Assembly: GCF_054482525.1 (NCBI RefSeq)
Contig: NZ_CM137006.1
DNA length: 64,000 nucleotides
Strand: one strand, 5' to 3'
Of the stretch, positions 5,874 to 58,227 are shown piece after piece. Under the pieces are notes generated by a model that saw nothing but the letters and a program-made list of their open reading frames with translations, ran no database searches and was not told the origin of the DNA. The translations under genes and the position numbers were made by a program. Positions within the stretch are counted from its first letter, which is position 1, and every line of letters starts with the position of its first letter.

Positions 5874-7103
5874 TCAGGGCCAACGTTTAATGATGATGGA
5901 TGTATTAATGCCACCAAAGGCAAAGTTGTTACTCTGCAAAAACTCACAATCAACTTTGCGGGCTTCATGCATGATGTAATCCAGCGCGCCACAATTCGGG
6001 TCTGGTTTATTCAGGTTTAGCGTAGGCGCAAACCAACCTTCGCGCATCATTTGCAGACTCATCCAGGCTTCGAGCGCGCCACAGGCACCAAGCGTATGAC
6101 CAAAATAACTTTTCAGCGAGGAGAGCGGCACATTATCACCGTAAATGGTTGCTGTCGCCAGACTTTCTGCCATATCACCGCGATCGGTCGCCGTACCATG
6201 CGCTGAAATATAGCCGATATCTTGTGCGCTTAACCCGGCGATTTTCAGCGATTGCTCCATACAATACTGCATGGTTTCGCGCTGCGGCTGGGTAATATGT
6301 GCCGCGTCGCAGTTAGTCGCAAAGCCGACGATTTCACCGTAAATGGTCGCGCCGCGCGCTTTGGCGTGCTCCAGTTCTTCGAGAATGAGCGTACCTGCGC
6401 CTTCACCAATCACCAGCCCGTCGCGGTTTTCATCGAACGGTGAAGGTGTGGTTTTCGGCGCATCATTGTGCTGGCTGGTGGCGAAAAGCGTATCAAATAC
6501 CGCTGCTTCTGAAGGGCATAACTCTTCGGCACCACCAGCAACCATCACCGTTTGATAACCGTGGCGAATGGCTTCCCACGCATAACCGATTGCCTGGCTG
6601 CCGGAGGTACAGGCGCTGGAGGTTGGAATCACCCGCCCGCGCAGGCCGAAAAAGAGGCCAGTATTAACGGCGGTGGTGTGTGGCATCATCTGCACATAGG
6701 TGGTGCCAGTGATGTTGTTCGTGTGCTTTTCCGTCAGCATGGTGGCGAACTCGCTCACCGGGCCGGTACTGCCGGTCGATGAACCGTACGCAATGCCCGT
6801 TTCGCCGCTGGTTAATATCGGATCGCCAATCAACCCTGCCTGCTCTAATGCCAGCTCTGTCGCACGGGTCGACATTTGCGACACGCGGCCCATCGCACGG
6901 ATACGCTTGCGGGTGTAATGCTCCGGCAGCGTAAAATCATCAACAGGCGCGCCAAGCAGGGTGTGCAGACCATCGTAGACCTGCCACTCCGGCATTTTGC
7001 GCACTGCATTCTCATACGCCAGCAGACGCGCGGAAACGTCCTGCCAGTTTTCACCAAAGGCAGTCACGCCGCCCATTCCTGTAATCACTACGCGACGTGT
7101 CAT
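5874..7103 (-). CDS. Beta-ketoacyl-ACP synthase (KS) with Cys-His-His active site; by gene order apeR-like
   Basis: 409 aa ORF with active-site Cys in SSACTSG and His motifs SAHGTATDRGD and FGHTLGACG; FabB/FabF fold. Confidence 0.85.
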   Translation of the reverse strand: MTRRVVITGMGGVTAFGENWQDVSARLLAYENAVRKMPEWQVYDGLHTLLGAPVDDFTLPEHYTRKRIRAMGRVSQMSTRATELALEQAGLIGDPILTSGETGIAYGSSTGSTGPVSEFATMLTEKHTNNITGTTYVQMMPHTTAVNTGLFFGLRGRVIPTSSACTSGSQAIGYAWEAIRHGYQTVMVAGGAEELCPSEAAVFDTLFATSQHNDAPKTTPSPFDENRDGLVIGEGAGTLILEELEHAKARGATIYGEIVGFATNCDAAHITQPQRETMQYCMEQSLKIAGLSAQDIGYISAHGTATDRGDMAESLATATIYGDNVPLSSLKSYFGHTLGACGALEAWMSLQMMREGWFAPTLNLNKPDPNCGALDYIMHEARKVDCEFLQSNNFAFGGINTSIIIKRWP

Positions 7104-20904: not shown

Positions 20905-20919
20905 GGTAATGACTCCAAC

Positions 20920-21423
20920 TTATTGATAGTGTTTTATGTTCAGATAATGCCCGATGACTTTGTCATGCAGCTCCACCGATTTTGAAAACGACAGCGACTT
21001 CCGTCCCAGCCGTGCCAGGTGCTGCCTCAGATTCAGGTTATGCCGCTCAATTCGCTGCGTATATCGCTTGCTGATTACGTGCAGCTTTCCCTTCAGGCGG
21101 GATTCATACAGCGGCCAGCCATCCGTCATCCATATCACCACGTCAAAGGGTGACAGCAGGCTCATAAGACGCCCCAGCGTCGCCATAGTGCGTTCACCGA
21201 ATACGTGCGCAACAACCGTCTTCCGGAGCCTGTCATACGCGTAAAACAGCCAGCGCTGGCGCGATTTAGCCCCGACGTATCCCCACTGTTCGTCCATTTC
21301 CGCGCAGACGATGACGTCACTGCCCGGCTGTATGCGCGAGGTTACCGACTGCGGCCTGAGTTTTTTAAGTGACGTAAAATCGTGTTGAGGCCAACGCCCA
21401 TAATGCGGGCGGTTGCCCGGCAT
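20920..21423 (-). CDS. insB: IS1 transposase InsB
   Basis: 167 aa ORF matching IS1 InsB (…[54 protein letters not shown]…). Confidence 0.9.
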
Positions 21424-21617
21424 CCAACGCCATTCATGGCCATATCAATGATTTTCTGGTGCGTACCGGGTTGAGAAGCGGTGTAAGTGAACTGCAGTTG
21501 CCATGTTTTACGGCAGTGAGAGCAGAGATAGCGCTGATGTCCGGCGGTGCTTTTGCCGTTACGCACCACTCCGTCAGTAGCTGAACAGGAGGGACAGCTG
21601 ATAGAAACAGAAGCCAC
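21342..21617 (-). CDS. insA: IS1 protein InsA
   Basis: 91 aa [46 protein letters not shown]... matching IS1 InsA. Confidence 0.9.
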
Positions 21618-21672
21618 TGGAGCACCTCAAAAACACCATCATACACTAAATCAGTAAGTTGGCAGCATCACC

Positions 21673-45414: not shown

Positions 45415-45420
45415 TTCTCT

Positions 45421-45575
45421 TACCCTCACCCTAACCCTCTCCCAAAGGGAGAGGGGACCGATCGGCGTGGTATCCAGGTGCCGTGTCGGTTTGCAACTTC
45501 GCTCGGTGGGAAAGTATGCACCGCCTTTCTCCCTCGCCCCTCTGGGGAGAGGGCCGGGGTGAGGGGAACACAACA
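45421..45575. repeat. GC-rich intergenic palindromic repeat (boxC-like), long copy with two inverted arms
   Basis: Left arm ccctcaccctaaccctctccc and right arm gggagagggccggggtgagggg are inverted copies; the left part matches the element at 26250-26300. Confidence 0.5.
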
Positions 45576-45589
45576 CGAAGAGTTTAACT

Positions 45590-46477
45590 ATGTCATCATC
45601 CCGTCCGGTGTTCCGCTCGCGCTGGCTGCCCTATTTGCTGGTCGCGCCGCAGCTCATCATCACCGTTATCTTTTTTATCTGGCCTGCGGGCGAAGCGTTG
45701 TGGTACTCGCTGCAAAGCGTCGATCCGTTTGGTTTCTCCAGCCAGTTTGTCGGCCTGGATAACTTCGTCACGCTGTTTCATGACAGCTACTATCTCGACT
45801 CCTTCTGGACGACGATAAAATTCAGCACCTTTGTCACCGTCAGTGGTTTGCTGGTGTCGCTGTTCTTTGCGGCGCTGGTGGAGTACATCGTGCGCGGCAG
45901 CCGTTTCTATCAAACCTTGATGCTGCTGCCGTATGCCGTGGCTCCCGCCGTTGCCGCCGTATTGTGGATCTTCCTGTTTAACCCTGGTCGCGGGCTGATC
46001 ACCCATTTTCTCGCTGAGTTCGGCTACGACTGGAACCACGCGCAAAACAGCGGTCAGGCGATGTTTCTGGTGGTGTTTGCCTCGGTGTGGAAGCAAATCA
46101 GCTACAACTTCCTGTTCTTCTATGCCGCGCTGCAATCCATTCCCCGTTCGTTGATCGAAGCCGCAGCCATCGACGGTGCAGGCCCGATTCGCCGCTTCTT
46201 TAAGATTGCGCTGCCGCTTATCGCTCCGGTGAGTTTCTTCCTGCTGGTGGTGAACCTGGTATACGCCTTCTTCGACACCTTCCCGGTGATCGACGCCGCC
46301 ACGTCCGGCGGGCCGGTTCAGGCCACCACGACGCTGATTTATAAGATTTACCGCGAAGGCTTTACCGGACTGGATCTGGCTTCGTCTGCCGCGCAGTCGG
46401 TGGTGTTGATGTTCCTCGTCATCGTGCTGACGGTGGTGCAGTTCCGCTATGTTGAAAGCAAGGTGCGTTACCAATGA
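45590..46477 (+). CDS. ugpA: Glycerol-3-phosphate ABC permease UgpA
   Basis: 295 aa hydrophobic permease ORF. Confidence 0.9.
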
Positions 46478-47319
46478 TTGAGAACCGTCCGTGGCTGACA
46501 ATATTCAGCCATACCATGTTGATCCTCGGGATCGCGGTGATCCTCTTCCCGCTGTACGTGGCGTTTGTCGCGGCGACGCTGGATAAACAGGCCGTCTATG
46601 CCGCGCCGATGACGCTCATCCCCGGCACACATCTGCTGGAAAATATCCACAACATCTGGGTGAACGGGGTAGGCACGAATAGTGCGCCTTTCTGGCGGAT
46701 GTTGCTTAACAGCTTTGTGATGGCGTTCAGCATTACGCTCGGCAAAATTACCGTCTCGATGCTCTCGGCATTTGCCATTGTCTGGTTTCGTTTTCCGCTG
46801 CGTAACCTCTTCTTCTGGATGATTTTTATCACTCTGATGTTGCCGGTTGAAGTGCGTATTTTCCCGACGGTGGAAGTCATCGCCAATCTGAAGATGCTCG
46901 ACAGCTACGCCGGCTTAACGCTGCCGCTGATGGCCTCGGCGACCGCCACCTTCCTGTTCCGCCAGTTCTTTATGACGCTGCCGGATGAGCTGGTGGAAGC
47001 TGCGCGGATCGACGGCGCGTCACCAATGCGTTTCTTTTGCGACATCGTTTTTCCGCTGTCCAAAACCAATCTGGCGGCGCTGTTTGTGATCACCTTTATC
47101 TACGGCTGGAACCAGTATTTGTGGCCGTTGTTGATTATTACCGATGTGGATCTCGGCACCACCGTAGCAGGGATTAAAGGGATGATCGCCACAGGCGAAG
47201 GCACCACGGAATGGAACTCGGTGATGGCGGCGATGTTGTTAACCCTGATCCCACCAGTAGTGATTGTTTTAGTGATGCAGCGTGCCTTCGTGCGCGGCCT
47301 GGTCGATAGTGAGAAATAA
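46474..47319 (+). CDS. ugpE: Glycerol-3-phosphate ABC permease UgpE
   Basis: 281 aa hydrophobic permease ORF; 4 nt overlap with ugpA. Confidence 0.9.
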
Positions 47320-47320
47320 G

Positions 47321-48391
47321 ATGGCAGGACTGAAATTACAGGCAGTAACCAAAAGCTGGGATGGCAAAACCCAGGTCATTAAACCGCTGACCCTTGATGT
47401 GGCGGATGGCGAATTTATCGTGATGGTCGGGCCGTCTGGCTGCGGGAAATCGACGTTATTGCGAATGGTGGCCGGACTGGAGCGGGTAACGACGGGCGAT
47501 ATCTGGATCGACCGCAAGCGTGTCACCGAAATGGAGCCGAAAGATCGCGGGATTGCGATGGTGTTTCAGAACTACGCGCTTTATCCGCATATGAGCGTCG
47601 AAGAAAACATGGCGTGGGGGCTGAAAATTCGCGGCATGGGCAAGCAGCAAATTGCCGAGCGCGTTAAAGAAGCGGCGCGCATTCTGGAGCTGGACGGCCT
47701 GCTTAAGCGCCGCCCGCGTGAGCTATCTGGCGGTCAGCGTCAGCGTGTGGCGATGGGGCGTGCGATTGTGCGTGAGCCGGCAGTGTTCCTGTTTGATGAG
47801 CCGCTCTCTAACCTCGATGCCAAGCTGCGCGTACAGATGCGTCTTGAACTGCAACAGCTGCACCGTCGCCTGAAAACGACTTCACTCTACGTTACTCACG
47901 ATCAGGTTGAGGCGATGACGCTCGCCCAGCGAGTAATGGTGATGAACGGCGGCGTTGCCGAACAGATTGGCACGCCAGTTGAAGTCTACGAAAAGCCCGC
48001 CAGCCTGTTTGTGGCGAGTTTTATTGGCAGTCCGGCGATGAATCTGCTGACAGGCCGCGTGAATAATGAAGGCACGCATTTTGAACTGGACGGCGGTATC
48101 GTGCTACCGCTAAACGGTGGCTACCGTCAGTATGCCGGGCGTAAAATGACTCTCGGCATTCGCCCGGAACATATTGCGCTAAGCTCGCAGGCAGAAGGCG
48201 GCGTACCGCTGGTGATGGACACGCTGGAGATCCTCGGCGCTGATAATCTGGCGCACGGACGCTGGGGCGAACAGAAGCTGGTGGTGCGACTGGCGCATCA
48301 GGAGCGCCCGACGGCAGGCAGCACGCTGTGGCTGCATCTGCCGGAAAATCAGCTGCATCTTTTTGATGGTGAAACAGGACAACGAGTATGA
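47321..48391 (+). CDS. ugpC: Glycerol-3-phosphate ABC ATPase UgpC
   Basis: ORF track 47282..48391; likely start [21 protein letters not shown] at 47321 (356 aa); Walker [10 protein letters not shown]. Confidence 0.9.
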
Positions 48392-49131
48392 GTAACTGGC
48401 CTTATCCCCGCATCGTCGCCCATCGTGGCGGCGGTAAACTGGCCCCGGAAAACACCCTGGCGGCAATCGACGTGGGGGCAAAATACGGTCATAAGATGAT
48501 CGAATTTGACGCGAAGTTATCGAAAGATGGCGAGATCTTCCTGCTCCATGACGACAATCTCGAACGTACCAGCAACGGCTGGGGCGTCGCGGGTGAACTG
48601 AACTGGCAGGATTTACTGCGCGTGGATGCGGGCAGTTGGTACAGCAAAGCGTTTAAAGGTGAGCCGCTGCCGTTGCTTTCGCAGGTGGCGGAACGCTGTC
48701 GTGAACACGGGATGATGGCGAATATCGAAATCAAGCCCACCACTGGCACCGGGCCATTAACGGGCAAAATGGTGGCGCTGGCGGCACGCGAACTGTGGGC
48801 CGATATGACGCCGCCGCTGCTGTCATCGTTTGAGATTGATGCTTTAGAAGCTGCACAACAGGCTGCACCGGAACTGCCGCGCGGTTTGTTGTTGGATGAG
48901 TGGCGCGACGACTGGCGAGAACTGACCGCGCGACTGGGCTGCGTCTCTATTCATCTCAATCATAAGTTGCTTGATAAAGCGCGAGTGATGCAGTTGAAAG
49001 ACGCCGGATTACGGATTCTGGTTTATACCGTCAATAAACCCCAGCGCGCGGCAGAGTTGCTGCGCTGGGGCGTGGATTGCATCTGCACCGATGCGATTGA
49101 CGTGATTGGTCCGAACTTTACGGCCCAATAG
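48388..49131 (+). CDS. ugpQ: Glycerophosphodiester phosphodiesterase UgpQ
   Basis: 247 aa ORF with the GDPD-family N-terminus (IVAHRGGG...ENTLAA). Confidence 0.9.
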
Positions 49132-49558
49132 TTTTCAACGGAATGTCAGGCTGCGGCGTGCTGGGCTGATTCAGCATGTCGCCGTTTCTCCTCTCCGGCA
49201 GCATATGCTGCTGATTCAACGAACTATCCGGATTACGGTTGCTGTTTAACATCCCGCCGTTGGTGTTGGGCAGCATTTGCTGCCGGGCGGGATTTCGCTC
49301 CCCCGGCTGCGACTGCAACACCCGCTGGGAGTTGTTGTTTATCTGGTTTTCTAAATGCTGCTGTTGCAGCTGCGTTTGCGTTTTCAGTTGCTGGTTCAGC
49401 ATCCCTTTTTGCTGGATTTGCTGCGTCTGCATTTGAGTCTGCATCCGCTGCTGGCTGGGGATCTGATATCCCGGCTGGTTGGGGTTGTTCAGAGTATTAA
49501 TGGGCTGTGCAAAGCCGACAAACGGCAGGAGTGCCGTAAGAATCAGAAGTCGTTTCAT
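49118..49558 (-). CDS. yhhA: Gln-rich secreted protein YhhA (DUF2756)
   Basis: 146 aa ORF with signal peptide [19 protein letters not shown] and a long Q/N-rich low-complexity region; convergent with ugpQ, 14 nt 3' overlap. Confidence 0.8.
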
Positions 49559-49677
49559 CGCGTATCCTCCTCTGAAGATATCCTTTAAGTTTACTCGCTT
49601 CCCGGCAAAACGATGATTAATTCAGAGTTATATACCAGGCTTAGCTGGGGTTGCCCCTTAATCTCTGGAGAATAACG

Positions 49678-51420
49678 ATGATAAAACCGACGTTTTTACG
49701 CCGGGTGGCCATTGCTGCTCTGCTCTCAGGAAGTTGTTTTAGCGCCGCCGCCGCGCCTCCTCCGCCACCTGTTTCTTATGGCGTGGAGGAAGATGTCTTC
49801 CATCCGGTACGCGCGAAACAGGGGATGGTGGCGTCTGTAGATGCTACTGCCACTCAGGTGGGGGTGGATATCCTCAAGGAGGGCGGGAATGCCGTTGATG
49901 CCGCCGTGGCTGTGGGCTACGCGCTGGCGGTAACGCATCCGCAGGCAGGGAATCTGGGCGGTGGTGGTTTTATGCTGATCCGCTCGAAAAATGGCAATAC
50001 CACCGCTATCGATTTCCGCGAAATGGCACCCGCCAAAGCGACCCGCGATATGTTCCTCGATGACCAGGGCAACCCGGACAGCAAAAAATCACTCACTTCG
50101 CATCTGGCCTCCGGTACGCCAGGTACGGTCGCAGGTTTCTCGCAGGCGCTGGAGAAGTACGGCACCATGCCGTTAAATAAAGTGGTGCAGCCGGCGTTTA
50201 AACTGGCACGCGATGGTTTTATCGTTAATGACGCGCTGGCTGACGATCTCAAAACCTACGGTAGCGAAGTGTTGCCGAATCACGAAAACAGCAAGGCTAT
50301 CTTCTGGAAAGAGGGCGCGCCGCTGAAAAAGGGCGACAAGCTGGTGCAGGCGAACCTGGCAAAGAGCCTGGAGATGATTGCCGAAAACGGCCCGGACGAA
50401 TTCTACAAAGGCACAATAGCGGAGCAGATCGCTCAGGAGATGCAGAAAAACGGTGGCTTGATCACTAAAGAAGATTTAGCGGCGTATAAAGCGGTCGAAC
50501 GTACACCGATTAGCGGCGAATATCGCGGGTATCAGGTTTACTCGATGCCACCGCCATCTTCCGGTGGGATTCATATCGTGCAGATCCTCAATATCCTGGA
50601 AAACTTCGATATGCAGAAATACGGCTTTGGCAGCGCCGATGCGATGCAAATCATGGCAGAAGCGGAGAAATACGCCTACGCCGACCGCTCGGAATATCTT
50701 GGCGATCCGGATTTTGTGAAAGTCCCGTGGCAGGCGCTGACCAATAAAGCCTATGCCAAATCTATTGCCGATCAAATCGATATCAATAAAGCGAAGCCAT
50801 CCAGCGAAATTCGCCCCGGCAAGCTTGCGCCTTATGAGAGTAATCAAACTACCCATTACTCAGTGGTGGATAAAGACGGCAACGCGGTAGCGGTGACCTA
50901 TACGCTGAACACCACCTTCGGTACGGGCATTGTCGCGGGTGATAGCGGTATTCTGCTTAATAACCAAATGGATGATTTCTCCGCCAAACCTGGCGTACCG
51001 AACGTTTACGGGCTGGTGGGCGGTGACGCCAACGCGGTCGGGCCGAATAAACGCCCGCTGTCGTCGATGTCCCCAACCATTGTGGTGAAAGACGGTAAAA
51101 CCTGGCTGGTTACCGGTAGCCCTGGCGGGAGCCGGATTATCACCACCGTGCTGCAAATGGTAGTGAATAGTATCGATTATGGCATGAACGTCGCCGAAGC
51201 GACCAATGCGCCGCGTTTCCACCATCAGTGGTTGCCGGACGAGCTGCGTGTCGAAAAAGGGTTTAGCCCGGATACGATCAAGCTGCTGGAAGCAAAAGGT
51301 CAGAAAGTGGCGCTGAAAGAGGCGATGGGCAGTACACAAAGCATTATGGTTGGGCCTGACGGTGAGCTGTACGGTGCATCTGACCCGCGCTCGGTAGATG
51401 ATTTAACGGCGGGGTATTAA
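49678..51420 (+). CDS. ggt: Gamma-glutamyltranspeptidase
   Basis: ORF track 49651..51420; likely start MIKPTFLRRVAIAALLSGSCFSAAAA at 49678 (580 aa); catalytic Thr region present (...NQTTHYSVVDKDGNAVAVTYTLNTTFGTG...). Confidence 0.9.
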   Translation: MIKPTFLRRVAIAALLSGSCFSAAAAPPPPPVSYGVEEDVFHPVRAKQGMVASVDATATQVGVDILKEGGNAVDAAVAVGYALAVTHPQAGNLGGGGFMLIRSKNGNTTAIDFREMAPAKATRDMFLDDQGNPDSKKSLTSHLASGTPGTVAGFSQALEKYGTMPLNKVVQPAFKLARDGFIVNDALADDLKTYGSEVLPNHENSKAIFWKEGAPLKKGDKLVQANLAKSLEMIAENGPDEFYKGTIAEQIAQEMQKNGGLITKEDLAAYKAVERTPISGEYRGYQVYSMPPPSSGGIHIVQILNILENFDMQKYGFGSADAMQIMAEAEKYAYADRSEYLGDPDFVKVPWQALTNKAYAKSIADQIDINKAKPSSEIRPGKLAPYESNQTTHYSVVDKDGNAVAVTYTLNTTFGTGIVAGDSGILLNNQMDDFSAKPGVPNVYGLVGGDANAVGPNKRPLSSMSPTIVVKDGKTWLVTGSPGGSRIITTVLQMVVNSIDYGMNVAEATNAPRFHHQWLPDELRVEKGFSPDTIKLLEAKGQKVALKEAMGSTQSIMVGPDGELYGASDPRSVDDLTAGY

Positions 51421-51424
51421 TATC

Positions 51425-51455
51425 TTAAGCCCTCTCCCGATAGGCGAGGGCTTAA
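51425..51455. terminator. Putative bidirectional terminator hairpin between convergent ggt and yhhY
   Basis: ttaagccctctcc-cgatag-gcgagggcttaa inverted repeat in the 60 bp gap. Confidence 0.5.
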
Positions 51456-51480
51456 ATGACAAACTTAGATTGCAAATTCT

Positions 51481-51969
51481 CTATTTCACCCGCGCCATAT
51501 AATACGCATCGACATATTCACCATTACGTAATGCGTACTTCTTGCCAGTCCCTTCAATCTCAAATCCAAATTTTTTATAGACCTTAATTGCTGGCGCGTT
51601 ATCGACGAACACCGTTAGCTCAATACGATCTACCCGCAACCAGTTGTCGCACATTTCAATCATCTCTCGCATCAGGGCGCTGGCGACGCCGCGATTCTTC
51701 CAACGGGAGTCGACACAAATACCAAAATCGGCAACATGACTGCGGCGTGGGCGCTGTTGCACGTCAATGGTGAGGTGACCCACGACGGTTCCATCAATAC
51801 AGGCAACTAACTGTTTGATGCCGGGACGATCGGCGAGTCGCTCCTGCCACATATGATCGGAAGGATGAGGCACCTGTAGTGTGTTGCAATACACCTCCGG
51901 CTGGGCGTGAATCTGCCTGATGGCCTCGTAATCGCGCGTTTCAGCATGGCGTATCACTATCTCACTCAT
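51481..51969 (-). CDS. yhhY: GNAT-family N-acetyltransferase YhhY
   Basis: ORF track 51481..52047; likely start MSEIVIRHAETRDYEAIRQ at 51969 (162 aa); acetyl-CoA binding motif RWKNRGVASAL. Confidence 0.8.
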   Translation of the reverse strand: MSEIVIRHAETRDYEAIRQIHAQPEVYCNTLQVPHPSDHMWQERLADRPGIKQLVACIDGTVVGHLTIDVQQRPRRSHVADFGICVDSRWKNRGVASALMREMIEMCDNWLRVDRIELTVFVDNAPAIKVYKKFGFEIEGTGKKYALRNGEYVDAYYMARVK

Positions 51970-52065
51970 TCCTTTGTCCTCTTTGGGGTAAATGTCCCTT
52001 TCAACATCATTGACTTTCCAATGCGAGTCAAATGCATTTTTTTGCAAAAAGTGTTGGACAAGTGC

Positions 52066-52088
52066 GAATGAGAATGATTATTATTGTC
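52066..52088 (+). promoter_or_regulatory. Fur-box-like operator in the ryhB promoter
   Basis: AT-rich tgagaatgattattattgtc immediately upstream of the ryhB +1 resembles the Fur consensus (GATAATGATAATCATTATC). Confidence 0.55.
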
Positions 52089-52090
52089 TC

Positions 52091-52180
52091 GCGATCAGGA
52101 AGACCCTCGCGGAGAACCTGAAAGCACGACATTGCTCACATTGCTTCCAGTATTACTTAGCCAGCCGGGTGCTGGCTTTT
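52091..52180 (+). ncRNA. ryhB: Iron-responsive small regulatory RNA RyhB
   Basis: The 90 nt sequence gcgatcaggaagaccctcgcggagaacctgaaagcacgacattgctcacattgcttccagtattacttagccagccgggtgctggctttt matches RyhB as I remember it, ending in a terminator hairpin (gccagccgggtgctggc) plus U-run; lies between yhhY and yhhX. Confidence 0.9.
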
Positions 52181-52301
52181 TTTTGATCTTTCGTTTTCAA
52201 TTTATCCACGGGAAGTGCTTGTGTTCGTTATGCGCACTCCAGTAGGAACCACGTCCGCTTTGCGCTAAGGTGTAAATAATCACCTTAAAAAGGACGAAAT
52301 C

Positions 52302-53339
52302 ATGGTCATCAACTGCGCCTTTATTGGCTTCGGCAAAAGCACCACCCGTTACCATCTGCCGTATGTACTTAACCGCAAGGATAGCTGGCATGTCGCGCAT
52401 ATTTTTCGCCGCCATGCGAAGCCGGAAGAACAGGCCCCCATTTACTCTCATATCCATTTCACCAGCGATCTCGACGAAGTACTAAACGATCCCGATGTTA
52501 AGCTGGTTGTGGTCTGCACCCATGCAGACAGCCACTTCGAGTACGCGAAGCGCGCGCTGGAAGCCGGGAAAAATGTGCTGGTCGAAAAACCGTTCACCCC
52601 GACGCTTGCGCAGGCGAAAGAGCTGTTTGCTCTGGCGAAAAGTAAAGGGCTGACCGTCACGCCATATCAGAATCGTCGCTTTGATTCCTGCTTCCTGACG
52701 GCGAAAAAAGCGATTGAAAGCGGCAAGCTGGGAGAGATTGTCGAAGTGGAAAGCCATTTTGACTATTACCGCCCGGTGGCAGAAACCAAACCTGGGCTGC
52801 CGCAGGATGGCGCGTTCTATGGCCTTGGTGTGCATACGATGGACCAGATTATTTCTCTGTTCGGTCGCCCGGATCACGTCGCTTATGACATCCGCAGCCT
52901 GCGTAATAAAGCCAATCCTGACGACACCTTTGAAGCGCAGCTGTTTTATGGCGACCTGAAAGCCATCGTCAAAACCAGCCATCTGGTGAAAATCGATTAT
53001 CCGAAATTTATCGTTCACGGTAAGAAAGGTTCGTTTATTAAATACGGTATCGACCAGCAGGAAACCAGCCTCAAGGCTAATATTATGCCGGGCGAACCGG
53101 GATTCGCGGCGGATGATTCGGTCGGTGTGCTGGAGTATGTCAATGACGAGGGCGTGACGGTCAGAGAAGAGATAAAGCCGGAGATGGGCGATTACGGGCG
53201 CGTTTATGATGCGTTGTATCAAACCATCACTAACGGTGCGCCAAATTACGTCAAGGAATCTGAAGTTCTTACCAATCTGGAAATCCTTGAACGAGGATTT
53301 GAGCAAGCCTCTCCCTCCACAGTGACTCTCGCGAAGTAA
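52302..53339 (+). CDS. yhhX: Gfo/Idh/MocA-family NAD(P)-dependent oxidoreductase YhhX
   Basis: 345 aa ORF with N-terminal Rossmann motif CAFIGFGKSTTRYHLPYV. Confidence 0.85.
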   Translation: MVINCAFIGFGKSTTRYHLPYVLNRKDSWHVAHIFRRHAKPEEQAPIYSHIHFTSDLDEVLNDPDVKLVVVCTHADSHFEYAKRALEAGKNVLVEKPFTPTLAQAKELFALAKSKGLTVTPYQNRRFDSCFLTAKKAIESGKLGEIVEVESHFDYYRPVAETKPGLPQDGAFYGLGVHTMDQIISLFGRPDHVAYDIRSLRNKANPDDTFEAQLFYGDLKAIVKTSHLVKIDYPKFIVHGKKGSFIKYGIDQQETSLKANIMPGEPGFAADDSVGVLEYVNDEGVTVREEIKPEMGDYGRVYDALYQTITNGAPNYVKESEVLTNLEILERGFEQASPSTVTLAK

Positions 53340-53348
53340 GTTTGATGG

Positions 53349-53383
53349 CCCCTCGAATAGTTCAATTTTTTTGAACAGAGGGG
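53349..53383 (+). terminator. Putative rho-independent terminator after yhhX
   Basis: Inverted repeat cccctcgaatagttcaa-tttttt-tgaacagagggg 10 bp after the yhhX stop. Confidence 0.45.
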
Positions 53384-53461
53384 TCAATTTTCACCCTCTA
53401 TCATCCCAGGCAGATCGGGTCCACACTAAGCCCATCGAAATCATTCAGGGGGCGAATACAA

Positions 53462-54157
53462 ATGATCTACTTACGCAAAGCAAATGAACGTGGCCATGCA
53501 AATCATGGCTGGCTGGACTCCTGGCATACTTTCTCTTTTGCCAACTATTACGATCCGAACTTTATGGGCTTCTCCGCGCTGCGCGTGATTAACGACGACG
53601 TGATTGAAGCAGGGCAGGGCTTCGGCACTCACCCGCATAAAGATATGGAAATTTTGACCTACGTGCTGGAAGGTACTGTTGAGCATCAGGACAGCATGGG
53701 CAATAAAGAGCAGGTTCCGGCGGGTGAGTTCCAGATTATGAGTGCGGGTACGGGTATTCGTCACTCAGAGTACAACCCAAGCAGCACCGAGCGTCTGCAT
53801 CTGTATCAAATCTGGATCATGCCGGAAGAAAACGGTATTACGCCGCGTTATGAACAGTGTCGCTTCGATGCCGTACAGGGCAAACAGCTGGTGCTCTCGC
53901 CGGATGCGCGAGATGGTTCGCTGAAAGTGCATCAGGATATGGAACTGTATCGTTGGGCATTGCTGAAAGATGAGCAGTCGGTGCATCAGATTGCCGCTGA
54001 ACGCCGCGTCTGGATCCAGGTGGTGAAAGGCAATGTCACCATTAACGGCGTGAAAGCCTCGACCAGCGATGGTCTGGCAATCTGGGATGAGCAGGCAATC
54101 TCCATTCATGCGGATAGCGACAGCGAAGTGTTACTGTTCGATCTGCCGCCGGTTTAA
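53462..54157 (+). CDS. yhhW: Pirin-like cupin protein (quercetin 2,3-dioxygenase) YhhW
   Basis: 231 aa ORF with cupin metal-binding His motifs (GFGTHPHKDMEILTYVLEG). Confidence 0.85.
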   Translation: MIYLRKANERGHANHGWLDSWHTFSFANYYDPNFMGFSALRVINDDVIEAGQGFGTHPHKDMEILTYVLEGTVEHQDSMGNKEQVPAGEFQIMSAGTGIRHSEYNPSSTERLHLYQIWIMPEENGITPRYEQCRFDAVQGKQLVLSPDARDGSLKVHQDMELYRWALLKDEQSVHQIAAERRVWIQVVKGNVTINGVKASTSDGLAIWDEQAISIHADSDSEVLLFDLPPV

Positions 54158-54380
54158 AACTCAACGGCATCTTTGAAGCCTGCCTTTTTGCAGGCTTCCT
54201 CGCTCGCTCCGGTCGCGTGCTGATGTACGCTTCCGGGGTTTTGCCGCGTCGTTAGCACAATGCGATGCAATTGATTTAGTGTATATCTAATAATTGTAAA
54301 CAAGCACTGTTTTCCCCGGGAAGGTTCTGATGCGTCCGTGTTAAACTAAGAGAATCTATCTCTTTTGTACCTTCAGGACG

Positions 54381-55376
54381 ATGAAAAAGAAAAGACCCGT
54401 ACTTCAGGATGTGGCTGACCGTGTAGGCGTGACCAAAATGACGGTCAGCCGCTTTTTGCGTAACCCGGAGCAGGTTTCCGTCGCTCTACGCGGCAAGATT
54501 GCCGCCGCTCTTGATGAACTGGGTTATATTCCCAATCGCGCACCCGATATCCTCTCTAACGCCACCAGCCGGGCGATTGGCGTCCTGTTACCTTCTCTCA
54601 CCAACCAGGTTTTCGCGGAAGTATTACGCGGAATCGAAAGCGTCACCGACGCGCACGGTTATCAGACCATGCTGGCCCACTACGGTTATAAACCGGAAAT
54701 GGAGCAAGAACGCCTCGAATCAATGCTCTCATGGAATATCGACGGACTGATCCTCACCGAACGTACCCACACGCCGCGCACCTTAAAGATGATTGAAGTG
54801 GCGGGGATTCCGGTGGTGGAGTTGATGGACAGCAAGTCGCCGTGCCTCGATATTGCCGTCGGTTTTGATAACTTTGAAGCGGCACGCCAGATGACCACCG
54901 CCATTATTGCTCGCGGGCATCGCCACATTGCCTATCTCGGCGCACGTCTCGACGAACGTACTATCATCAAACAGAAGGGATACGAACAGGCGATGCTGGA
55001 TGCAGGCCTGGTGCCATATAGCGTGATGGTTGAGCAATCTTCTTCTTACTCTTCCGGTATTGAACTGATTCGCCAGGCGAGGCGGGAATATCCGCAGCTG
55101 GATGGCGTGTTCTGTACTAATGATGACCTGGCGGTCGGCGCGGCGTTTGAATGCCAGCGTCTGGGGTTAAAAGTTCCTGACGATATGGCGATTGCCGGTT
55201 TCCATGGTCATGACATTGGTCAGGTGATGGAACCACGGTTGGCGAGCGTACTGACGCCGCGTGAGCGGATGGGCAGTATTGGCGCTGAACGCCTGCTGGC
55301 GCGTATTCGTGGCGAATCTGTGACACCGAAAATGTTAGATTTAGGTTTCACCTTGTCACCGGGCGGATCTATTTAA
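54381..55376 (+). CDS. gntR: LacI-family gluconate repressor GntR
   Basis: 331 aa ORF with N-terminal HTH (VLQDVADRVGVTKMTVSRFL) and periplasmic-binding-like C-terminal domain. Confidence 0.9.
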   Translation: MKKKRPVLQDVADRVGVTKMTVSRFLRNPEQVSVALRGKIAAALDELGYIPNRAPDILSNATSRAIGVLLPSLTNQVFAEVLRGIESVTDAHGYQTMLAHYGYKPEMEQERLESMLSWNIDGLILTERTHTPRTLKMIEVAGIPVVELMDSKSPCLDIAVGFDNFEAARQMTTAIIARGHRHIAYLGARLDERTIIKQKGYEQAMLDAGLVPYSVMVEQSSSYSSGIELIRQARREYPQLDGVFCTNDDLAVGAAFECQRLGLKVPDDMAIAGFHGHDIGQVMEPRLASVLTPRERMGSIGAERLLARIRGESVTPKMLDLGFTLSPGGSI

Positions 55377-55455
55377 GCCCACAAATTTGAAGTAGCTCAC
55401 ACTTATACACTTAAGGCACGGATGGATATTGCTTCTGATATTGTCCGGCTGGACA

Positions 55456-55484
55456 ATGTTACCGATAACAGTTACCCGTAACAT
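55456..55484 (+). promoter_or_regulatory. GntR operator(s) in the gntK promoter
   Basis: aatgttaccgataacagttacccgtaacat contains two overlapping near-palindromes of the ATGTTACCnnTAACAT type, 30-60 bp upstream of gntK. Confidence 0.6.
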
Positions 55485-55513
55485 TTTTATTTCTTGTATT
55501 GTGGGGGCACCAC

Positions 55514-56042
55514 TTTGAGCACGACTAACCATGATCACCACATTTACGTTCTGATGGGCGTCTCAGGCAGCGGCAAATCTGCGGTCGCCAGTGAAGTGGC
55601 GCATCAACTTCATGCCGCGTTTCTTGATGGCGATTTCCTCCATCCGCGCTGCAATATCGAAAAAATGGCGTCTGGCGAACCGCTGAATGACGACGATCGC
55701 AAACCGTGGTTGCAGGCGCTGAACGACGCCGCGTTTGCTATGCAGCGCACTAATAAAGTGTCGCTGATTGTCTGTTCTGCACTGAAAAAACACTATCGCG
55801 ACCTGCTACGCGCGGGTAATCCGAATCTCTCGTTCATCTACCTGAAAGGCGATTTTGATGTGATTGAAAACCGCCTGAAAGCGCGCAAAGGCCATTTCTT
55901 TAAAACCCAAATGTTGGTGACGCAGTTTGAAACGCTGCAGGAGCCGGGTGCGGACGAAACCGATGTACTGGTGGTAGATATCGATCAACCGCTGGAAGGT
56001 GTTGTGGCAAGCACCATTGAGGTTATTAAAAAAGGCAAATAA
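55514..56042 (+). CDS. gntK: Gluconate kinase (thermoresistant) GntK
   Basis: ORF track 55494..56042; likely TTG start giving MSTTNHDHHIYVLMGVSGSGKSAV (175 aa); P-loop GVSGSGKS. Confidence 0.85.
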
Positions 56043-56045
56043 GTA

Positions 56046-57386
56046 GTGACTACATTAACGCTTGTTTTAACAGCAGTAGGGTCTGTTTTACTGCTGCTGT
56101 TTTTAGTCATGAAGGCGCGTATGCACGCTTTCCTGGCTTTGATGGTGGTGTCCATGGGGGCTGGCCTTTTTTCCGGTATGCCGCTCGATAAAATCGCAGC
56201 GACGATGGAAAAAGGGATGGGAGGCACCCTCGGCTTCCTGGCGGTGGTTGTCGCCCTGGGAGCTATGTTTGGCAAGATCTTACATGAAACCGGCGCAGTC
56301 GATCAGATTGCCGTCAAAATGCTCAAATCCTTCGGTCACAGCCGCGCACATTATGCCATCGGCCTTGCGGGGCTGGTTTGTGCACTACCGCTGTTCTTTG
56401 AAGTGGCGATTGTTCTGCTGATTAGCGTTGCTTTCTCAATGGCGCGCCACACCGGTACGAACCTGGTGAAGCTGGTAATCCCATTATTCGCAGGCGTGGC
56501 GGCCGCGGCTGCGTTCCTGGTGCCTGGACCAGCGCCAATGCTGCTGGCATCGCAGATGAATGCCGACTTTGGCTGGATGATCCTGATTGGCCTGTGTGCG
56601 GCAATTCCGGGAATGATTATTGCCGGGCCGCTGTGGGGTAATTTCATCAGCCGCTACGTGGAGTTGCATATTCCTGACGACATCAGCGAACCACATCTCG
56701 GTGAAGGCAAAATGCCGTCCTTCGGATTCAGCCTGTCGCTGATCCTGTTGCCACTGGTGCTGGTGGGGCTGAAAACCATTGCCGCGCGTTTTGTGCCAGA
56801 AGGCTCTACCGCTTACGAATGGTTCGAGTTTATTGGTCATCCGTTTACCGCGATTCTGGTTGCTTGTCTGGTAGCGATTTATGGCCTGGCAATGCGTCAG
56901 GGCATGCCAAAAGACAAAGTGATGGAGATTTGCGGTCACGCGCTGCAACCGGCGGGGATCATTCTGCTGGTGATTGGTGCAGGCGGCGTGTTCAAACAGG
57001 TGCTGGTTGACTCTGGCGTAGGTCCGGCACTGGGCGAAGCGTTAACCGGCATGGGCCTGCCGATTGCCATCACCTGCTTCGTGCTGGCAGCTGCAGTGCG
57101 CATCATTCAGGGTTCTGCCACCGTTGCCTGTTTAACGGCGGTGGGACTGGTGATGCCGGTTATTGAACAACTGAACTATTCCGGAGCGCAAATGGCGGCG
57201 CTGTCGATTTGTATCGCCGGTGGTTCGATTGTTGTCAGCCACGTTAACGACGCCGGTTTCTGGTTGTTCGGTAAATTTACCGGCGCGACTGAAGCCGAAA
57301 CACTGAAAACCTGGACCATGATGGAAACCATCCTCGGCACTGTCGGTGCCATCGTTGGGATGATTGCGTTCCAGCTGTTGAGTTAA
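56046..57386 (+). CDS. gntU: Low-affinity gluconate transporter GntU
   Basis: 446 aa hydrophobic GntP-family ORF with GTG start, immediately after gntK. Confidence 0.85.
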   Translation: MTTLTLVLTAVGSVLLLLFLVMKARMHAFLALMVVSMGAGLFSGMPLDKIAATMEKGMGGTLGFLAVVVALGAMFGKILHETGAVDQIAVKMLKSFGHSRAHYAIGLAGLVCALPLFFEVAIVLLISVAFSMARHTGTNLVKLVIPLFAGVAAAAAFLVPGPAPMLLASQMNADFGWMILIGLCAAIPGMIIAGPLWGNFISRYVELHIPDDISEPHLGEGKMPSFGFSLSLILLPLVLVGLKTIAARFVPEGSTAYEWFEFIGHPFTAILVACLVAIYGLAMRQGMPKDKVMEICGHALQPAGIILLVIGAGGVFKQVLVDSGVGPALGEALTGMGLPIAITCFVLAAAVRIIQGSATVACLTAVGLVMPVIEQLNYSGAQMAALSICIAGGSIVVSHVNDAGFWLFGKFTGATEAETLKTWTMMETILGTVGAIVGMIAFQLLS

Positions 57387-57388
57387 GT

Positions 57389-57422
57389 TTGTTCGCCCGG
57401 TAGTTGTGACGCTACCGGGCTC
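57389..57422 (+). terminator. Putative rho-independent terminator after gntU
   Basis: gcccggtag-ttgtgacg-ctaccgggc hairpin followed by tcttttcg. Confidence 0.6.
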
Positions 57423-57442
57423 TTTTCGAAAAACTCTCCTCG

Positions 57443-58036
57443 TTACCCCTTCATCCACATTCGAATGCCGTCGAGGAACATCTGAGTTGCCATCATCACC
57501 AGAATCAATCCCATCAGGCGTTCAAGTGCGTTCACCCCTTTCTCGCCCAGCAGACGTAAAAATAGCGAAGACTGTAGCAGGATGACAAAGGTGCCGCCCC
57601 AGGCCAGTAGCAGAGCAATTACCAGATGTCCCATCTGATTCGGGTACTGATGAGACAACAACATCAGCGTGGCGAGAATAGTCGGCCCGGCGACTAACGG
57701 AATTGCCAACGGCACGATAAACGGCTCTTCACCTGCCGGAAGCCCGCTGCTATTTCCTGAAGCACTGGGGAAAATCATCTTAATGGCGATCAGAAACAGA
57801 ATGATGCCGCCAGAAATGGAGACGGTTTCTGCCCGCAGGCTAAGAAATGCCAGAATTTTCTCACCCGCAAACAGGAACACCAGCATCACCAGGAGAGCAA
57901 TAAGCAACTCTCGCACCATGATTGCCCGCCGTCTTTTCGGTTCAGTATGTTTCAGTACGGACATGAAAATAGGTAGGTTTCCGAGCGGATCCATAATCAG
58001 GATCAATAAAACTGCTGCAGAAATGATTTCATTCAT
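57443..58036 (-). CDS. yhgN: MarC-family (UPF0056) inner-membrane protein YhgN
   Basis: 197 aa hydrophobic ORF MNEIISAAVLLILIMDPLGNLPIFMSVL... Confidence 0.85.
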   Translation of the reverse strand: MNEIISAAVLLILIMDPLGNLPIFMSVLKHTEPKRRRAIMVRELLIALLVMLVFLFAGEKILAFLSLRAETVSISGGIILFLIAIKMIFPSASGNSSGLPAGEEPFIVPLAIPLVAGPTILATLMLLSHQYPNQMGHLVIALLLAWGGTFVILLQSSLFLRLLGEKGVNALERLMGLILVMMATQMFLDGIRMWMKG

Positions 58037-58227
58037 AACTCAAATTCCCTGATAATTGCCGCGGACTTTCTGCGTGCTAACAAAGCAGGATAAGTCGCAT
58101 TACTGATGGCTTCGCTATCATTGATTAATTTCACTTGCGACTTTGGCTGCTTTTTGTATGGTGAAAGATGTGCCAAGAGGAGACCGGCACATTTATACAG
58201 CACACATCTTTGCAGGAAAAAACGCTT

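Follow-up and report, generated by a model that had tools for sequence, protein, structure and literature searches.

In E. coli K-12, the genes ggt and yhhY flank a segment that comprises yhhZ, yrhA (split by IS1E), yrhD and yrhB; in MG1655 and in MC1061, a K-12 derivative, the stop codons of yhhY and ggt are 3,454 bp apart. YhhZ has been classed as an Hcp-family His-Me/HNH nuclease (PMC5714182), and HNH toxins of the Hcp-ET1 type have been validated as T6SS effectors in other E. coli; laboratory strains of E. coli B and K-12 are apparently listed as exceptions without T6SS genes (PMC6730261). Our Pfam searches assigned YrhB to the Imm35 immunity family (PF15567) and identified in YhhZ an Hcp domain (PF05638), together with an HNH match that is weak and below threshold. 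Disregarding the IS1, the K-12 segment has a GC content of 33.7% compared to 51-55% for ggt, yhhY and yhhX, thus pointing to horizontal acquisition. In the literature on yhhZ together with Hcp we found no paper describing the ggt-yhhY site as such, and the feature analysed here is of an already known kind, an ordinary presence/absence polymorphism of the accessory genome.

The DNA studied was a 64-kb stretch, hereafter the window. A 1,201-bp query across its ggt-yhhY junction was 100% identical to E. coli PCN033 (NZ_CP006632.1), and only 4 of 5,427 records showed at least 99% identity over this query. In the 13,201 bp compared, a single base differed between the window and the RefSeq record of PCN033; this position, 53858 in yhhW, is T in the window and C in NZ_CP006632.1. 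PCN033 is a porcine ExPEC of serotype O11 and phylogroup D with an ANI of 97.56% to MG1655 (PMC4578781). The original prediction held that the strain is not K-12, and since the window matches PCN033, a phylogroup D strain, and yhhZ-yrhA::IS1E-yrhD-yrhB is absent at the site, this proved correct. Its statement that yhhZ, yrhA, an IS1 and yrhB lie between ggt and yhhY in K-12 also agrees with MG1655, yrhD being the one gene it did not name, and the same ggt-yhhY adjacency in K-12, which it had named as counter-evidence, is not the arrangement of MG1655 or MC1061.

The gene ggt encodes a gamma-glutamyltransferase of 580 aa on the + strand (49678..51420), within an ORF spanning 49651-51420; the RefSeq start is the ATG at 49678 and the stop codon is TAA at 51418-51420. 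The identity of the product was established by an NCBIfam profile search (gamma-glutamyltransferase equivalog NF007187, 1304 bits) and by the RefSeq annotation of PCN033. On the - strand, yhhY (51481..51969) encodes a GNAT N-acetyltransferase of 162 aa with a TAG stop at 51481-51483, likewise identified from its ORF, the RefSeq annotation and the profile search (N-acetyltransferase equivalog NF007527, 371 bits). Both genes are intact, their products showing 97-100% protein identity to E. coli orthologues, and they are convergent, tail to tail, with an intergenic spacer of exactly 60 bp (51421-51480) between the stop codons that was delimited from the sequence, by comparison with K-12 and by a genome census. 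The predicted gap of 60 bp is thus accurate to the base given stops at 51420 and 51481, and ORFs, annotation and folds all recovered the convergent genes with a single hairpin between them that had been described.

Neither YhhZ, YrhA, YrhB and YrhD nor the DUF4225 protein of O157 gave any tblastn match within the 64-kb window, in line with the claim that the window lacks the K-12 segment, and blastn against the K-12, IHE3034, O157 and DC71 inserts detected no islet remnants in the 60 bp. Homology to K-12 spans window positions 45590-51420 and 51478-58107, so that it breaks no more than 3 bp from both stop codons. A full-length IS1 is located at 20905-21672, away from the ggt-yhhY site; over 768 bp it shares 99.2% identity with the IS1E of MG1655. 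An Rfam scan of 49000-54000 returned RyhB only, with no match in the spacer; the gene of this sRNA (52120-52184, + strand; RF00057, 83 bits) is situated, as in MG1655, between yhhY and yhhX and has a canonical terminator of its own at 52159-52177.

Folding of both strands identified a hairpin at 51425-51455 with a 10-bp stem (TTAAGCCCTC/GAGGGCTTAA) and an 11-nt loop containing a 2-bp inner stem. Four nucleotides separate the stem from the ggt stop and 25 nt separate it from the yhhY stop; its predicted stability is -19 kcal/mol (+ strand; z = -3.8, 0/200 shuffles as stable) and -21.9 kcal/mol (- strand; z = -3.3). A U-rich tract (at least 5/8) directly 3' of the stem is absent on both strands, the tails being TTAAATGA (+) and TTAAGATA (-). 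A canonical intrinsic terminator was rejected, as the terminator scan did not call the hairpin and there is no T-run. When outgroup spacers were folded, a GC-rich hairpin was present in 29 of 29 despite their differing sequences. Among seven Escherichia spacers 92% of cells were paired, and covariation was not significant, as the single compensatory change (A-U replaced by C-G in E. whittamii) was reached in 80 of 500 shuffles; in the MAFFT alignment used here, the hairpin of APEC E12049 is mis-registered by one column. The position of the hairpin and its presence in every species examined suggest that it serves as a shared 3' end, or as a weak bidirectional terminator or RNA-stabilising structure, for the ggt and yhhY mRNAs, a role to which we give about an even chance. 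As the hairpin lacks a T-run, we infer a terminator role rather than assign it.

Alternatively, the hairpin could be no more than a degenerate copy of one of the dispersed palindromic repeats of enterobacteria, that with the core CCCTCTCCC...GGGAGAGGG, and have no role in ending transcription, which we regard as possible though somewhat doubtful. This palindromic family is one that we take to be BoxC-like. The missing T-run fits such an origin, and so does the occurrence of REP-like and CCCTCACCC/CCCTCTCCC-type palindromes that fill the spacer in Enterobacter, Lelliottia, Klebsiella and Citrobacter, full copies of the CCCTCTCCC...GGGAGAGGG repeat occupying it in Enterobacter and Lelliottia. 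Moreover, a full composite copy is found in the window itself between ugpB and ugpA (45415-45590), and the core of the hairpin, GCCCTCTCCC...GAGGGC, is an imperfect match to CCCTCTCCC-loop-GGGAGAGGG; because of this resemblance the ggt-yhhY hairpin may have descended from such a repeat. However, a 72-bp junction query matched at a median of 1 and a maximum of 2 positions per genome in our E. coli census; the junction, being single-copy, is thus no dispersed repeat itself. The retention of a hairpin in 29/29 outgroup spacers of differing sequence also argues against mere decay, and a repeat origin would in any case be compatible with use as a 3'-end structure. The composite GC-rich palindromic repeat in the ugpB-ugpA intergenic region (CCCTCACCCTAACCCTCTCCC...GGGAGAGGGG ... 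GGGGAGAGGGCCGGGGTGAGGGG) is of the same type as that filling the ggt-yhhY spacer in Enterobacter and Lelliottia; the ugpB-ugpA spacer measures about 175 bp in the window compared to about 97 bp in K-12 and O157, and homology breaks there.

The polarity of the difference from K-12 was determined by outgroup comparison. Scanning one genome per species with YhhY gave 40 loci, of which L046 and L047 (distant YhhY homologues with no ggt nearby) were set aside, leaving 38. In these loci of other species ggt was convergent with and adjacent to yhhY, the exception being Franconibacter pulveris with approximately 2.9 kb between the genes; adjacency was thus seen in E. albertii, E. whittamii, Escherichia sp. 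E1V33, Citrobacter, Enterobacter, Klebsiella, Lelliottia, Pluralibacter and Huaxiibacter. None of yhhZ, yrhA and yrhB was found in the scanned loci of other species, apart from the only islet-bearing locus of the scan (L010), which represents E. coli-like contamination in a MAG contig. The ggt-yhhY spacer measured 34-122 bp in 29 outgroup loci and 59-70 bp in non-coli Escherichia, and for three of the latter (E. albertii, Escherichia sp. E1V33 and locus L013) it could be aligned over its whole length with that of the window, L013 showing 4 differences in 60. Because the outgroups nearly all have adjacent genes without the islet and the Escherichia spacers align with that of the window, the compact ggt-yhhY arrangement is, as judged from this sequence comparison, the ancestral state, and what K-12 carries is an insertion derived within E. 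coli. Hence, the compact arrangement is not a loss peculiar to PCN033, and this polarity is what our analysis adds to a known polymorphism.

We surveyed the junction types in 5,426 complete E. coli genomes. The yhhY-yhhZ junction, i.e., the islet with or without IS1, was present in about 3,793 genomes (70%), and the 60-bp spacer of the window, which includes that of the ST131 strain EC958, in about 911 (17%). An O157:H7-type insert of 1.86 kb with a DUF4225 gene was found in 343 genomes, a yrhB-only form of 431 bp in 233, and a compact variant of 59 bp with a K-12-type hairpin, represented by APEC E12049, in about 75; in the latter, the K-12-type hairpin is joined to a window-type distal half of the spacer. 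A rare form, HS-02, carries a 385-bp replacement truncating yhhY. In agreement with these counts, a 1.2-kb query was nearly contiguous in 1,242 genomes, the yrhB-only form included. Phylogroup B2 holds both states, ST131 being compact and IHE3034 carrying the islet, and therefore allele exchange or repeated loss has occurred.

Some further variation was noted around the site in these genomes. YhhY is unusually polymorphic within E. coli; that of APEC E12049 (locus L005, 9036-9524) has 84.6% protein identity to the YhhY of the window, which is approximately the level of Citrobacter and Enterobacter, while the neighbouring Ggt and YhhX of this strain are 98% identical to those of the window, a discrepancy that suggests import of the E12049 yhhY allele from another species. 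O157:H7 PA20 (locus L004, 18052-21378) has an extra segment of approximately 3.3 kb between gntU and yhgN, encompassing dprA and a RecQ-family helicase gene with a frameshift, that is absent from the window and from K-12. In DCE7 (locus L007, 7425-9045), an IS4-family element annotated as ISEc13 resides in the loop of the ggt-yhhY hairpin, with a duplicated stretch of about 10 bp (CCGGTAGGTG) on either side.

Looking for signatures of the insertion, we compared the boundaries of the K-12, IHE3034, O157, DC71 and E12049 forms. The starting nucleotide, which follows ...GAAGAGGGC, is common to the K-12-type, O157 DUF4225-type and yrhB-only inserts; 36 bp at the left boundary, T-run included, recur in both the K-12 and the O157 form, and DC71 and O157 are 73% identical over one stretch. 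In these five forms we found no target duplication, att site, recombinase or conserved right boundary at the insertion. Given the common left boundary and these shared stretches, a single ancestral insertion, altered later by internal replacement or by decay, is more economical than three independent insertions into a hot spot. The common start of the three insert types, together with the ISEc13-annotated element in the hairpin loop of another strain, bears on a more speculative proposal, namely that integrase-free T6SS effector/immunity cassettes enter preferentially at the base of the ggt terminator hairpin and that compact strains such as PCN033 and ST131, being without yrhA/yrhB, could be sensitive to Hcp-HNH attackers; we find this improbable. 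With regard to the flanks, DNA divergence of the window from K-12 is about 4% across ugpA-ggt, 6-7% in yhhY and 1-2% beyond yhhX, so that the flanks of the variable site are more diverged than the genome-wide average of about 2.4% (ANI 97.56%, PMC4578781). Both this raised divergence and the coexistence of the two states in B2 fit a spread of the islet by homologous recombination through the flanks, which we infer to have been its probable route.

A different history would have the PCN033 lineage once possessing the yhhZ-yrhB islet and losing it by a clean deletion that left 60 bp. The islet is carried by about 70% of complete E. coli genomes, and deletion derivatives do exist, namely the yrhB-only form (233 genomes) and HS-02 with its truncated yhhY, while the 59-bp form of E12049 with its K-12-type hairpin (about 75 genomes) could be either a deletion or a recombinant. 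However, the islet-bearing forms all carry another allele of the ggt-side hairpin (GGCCCTCTTCGTGGGAAGAGGGC) than the window and also differ from it in the yhhY-proximal sequence, and therefore the spacer of the window is not what a deletion from the K-12 form would leave. The window instead has a hairpin and tail of the outgroup type, and its spacer aligns base for base with other Escherichia spacers, so that a deletion would have to have re-created the ancestral 60 bp exactly. Replacement of an islet by recombination with an empty allele is conceivable, yet the allele now present would still be the ancestral one. Altogether, secondary loss appears very unlikely. That the islet was merely collapsed out of the PCN033 assembly has practically no probability, as we found no evidence supporting it, the flanks are contiguous with ggt and yhhY both intact, and the same 72-bp junction occurs once per genome in 911 independently assembled complete E. 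coli genomes.

We thus consider it highly probable that PCN033 has kept an ancestral, never occupied junction and that the islet was inserted and spread within E. coli. According to this reconstruction, the ancestral junction of the Enterobacteriaceae would have consisted of two convergent housekeeping genes sharing one GC-rich palindromic hairpin, which, as a weak terminator working in both directions, may mark or stabilise the two mRNAs at their 3' ends. Directly 3' of this hairpin, a low-GC islet composed of yhhZ (Hcp domain and weak HNH match), the presumed immunity gene yrhA, yrhD and the orphan Imm35 gene yrhB would have been inserted in one E. coli lineage, and would have reached about 70% of the sequenced E. 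coli, presumably spreading by homologous recombination via the flanks; among them is K-12, where IS1E probably split yrhA later. PCN033, like ST131 and about 17% of complete genomes, would have retained the unoccupied allele.

The junction provides a clean marker separating K-12-like strains from PCN033- or ST131-like strains. It also implies that part of the K-12 map which is frequently regarded as standard is a low-GC islet, acquired horizontally and with a predicted toxin/immunity content; in the other Enterobacteriaceae examined, the site is compact. Where the allele is compact, yrhA/yrhB are missing from this site, which could affect T6SS-mediated competition; otherwise, the difference represents routine variation of the accessory genome.

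Compared to K-12 MG1655 (b3441-b3447), the window has the same flanking gene order and orientation, with ugpBAECQ, yhhA and ggt on one side and yhhY, ryhB, yhhX, yhhW and gntRKU on the other, and the proteins bordering the site are closely similar (98.3% identity for Ggt and 98.8% for YhhY). In contrast, the stop codons are separated by 3,454 bp in MG1655 and by 60 bp in the window, and the ggt-proximal hairpin of K-12 is another allele with a T-run behind it. The cargo occupying the K-12 site is of the kind known from Hcp-ET1-type T6SS effector/immunity modules (Ma et al. 2017, as reviewed in PMC6730261); this likeness, which is a predicted one, is to the K-12 proteins YhhZ (Hcp and weak HNH) and YrhB (Imm35), whereas the window holds no such module.

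Within E. coli, a close counterpart is the compact junction of ST131 (e.g., EC958) and other strains, which has the same 60-bp spacer and hairpin with 95.8% identity over the 72-bp query, although the 1.2-kb flanks of ST131 and other compact E. coli are only about 95% identical to those of the window. Outside E. coli, the convergent adjacent genes and a hairpin with a GCCCTCT...AGAGGGC core are shared with E. albertii, E. whittamii and Escherichia sp. E1V33, and an alignable 3' part ending ...TTGCAAATTCT is shared with E. albertii and E1V33, E. whittamii being the exception. On the other hand, loop sequence and stem length vary among these species, and in E. albertii the orientation of the loop is opposite to that in the window. 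The hairpin of E. albertii (spacer at 6457-6518 of locus L012) fits the reverse complement of window positions 51425-51455 better than the direct orientation, its loop GCCTACCGG corresponding to CCGATAGGC of the window, and therefore the loop appears to have been flipped within conserved palindromic stems.
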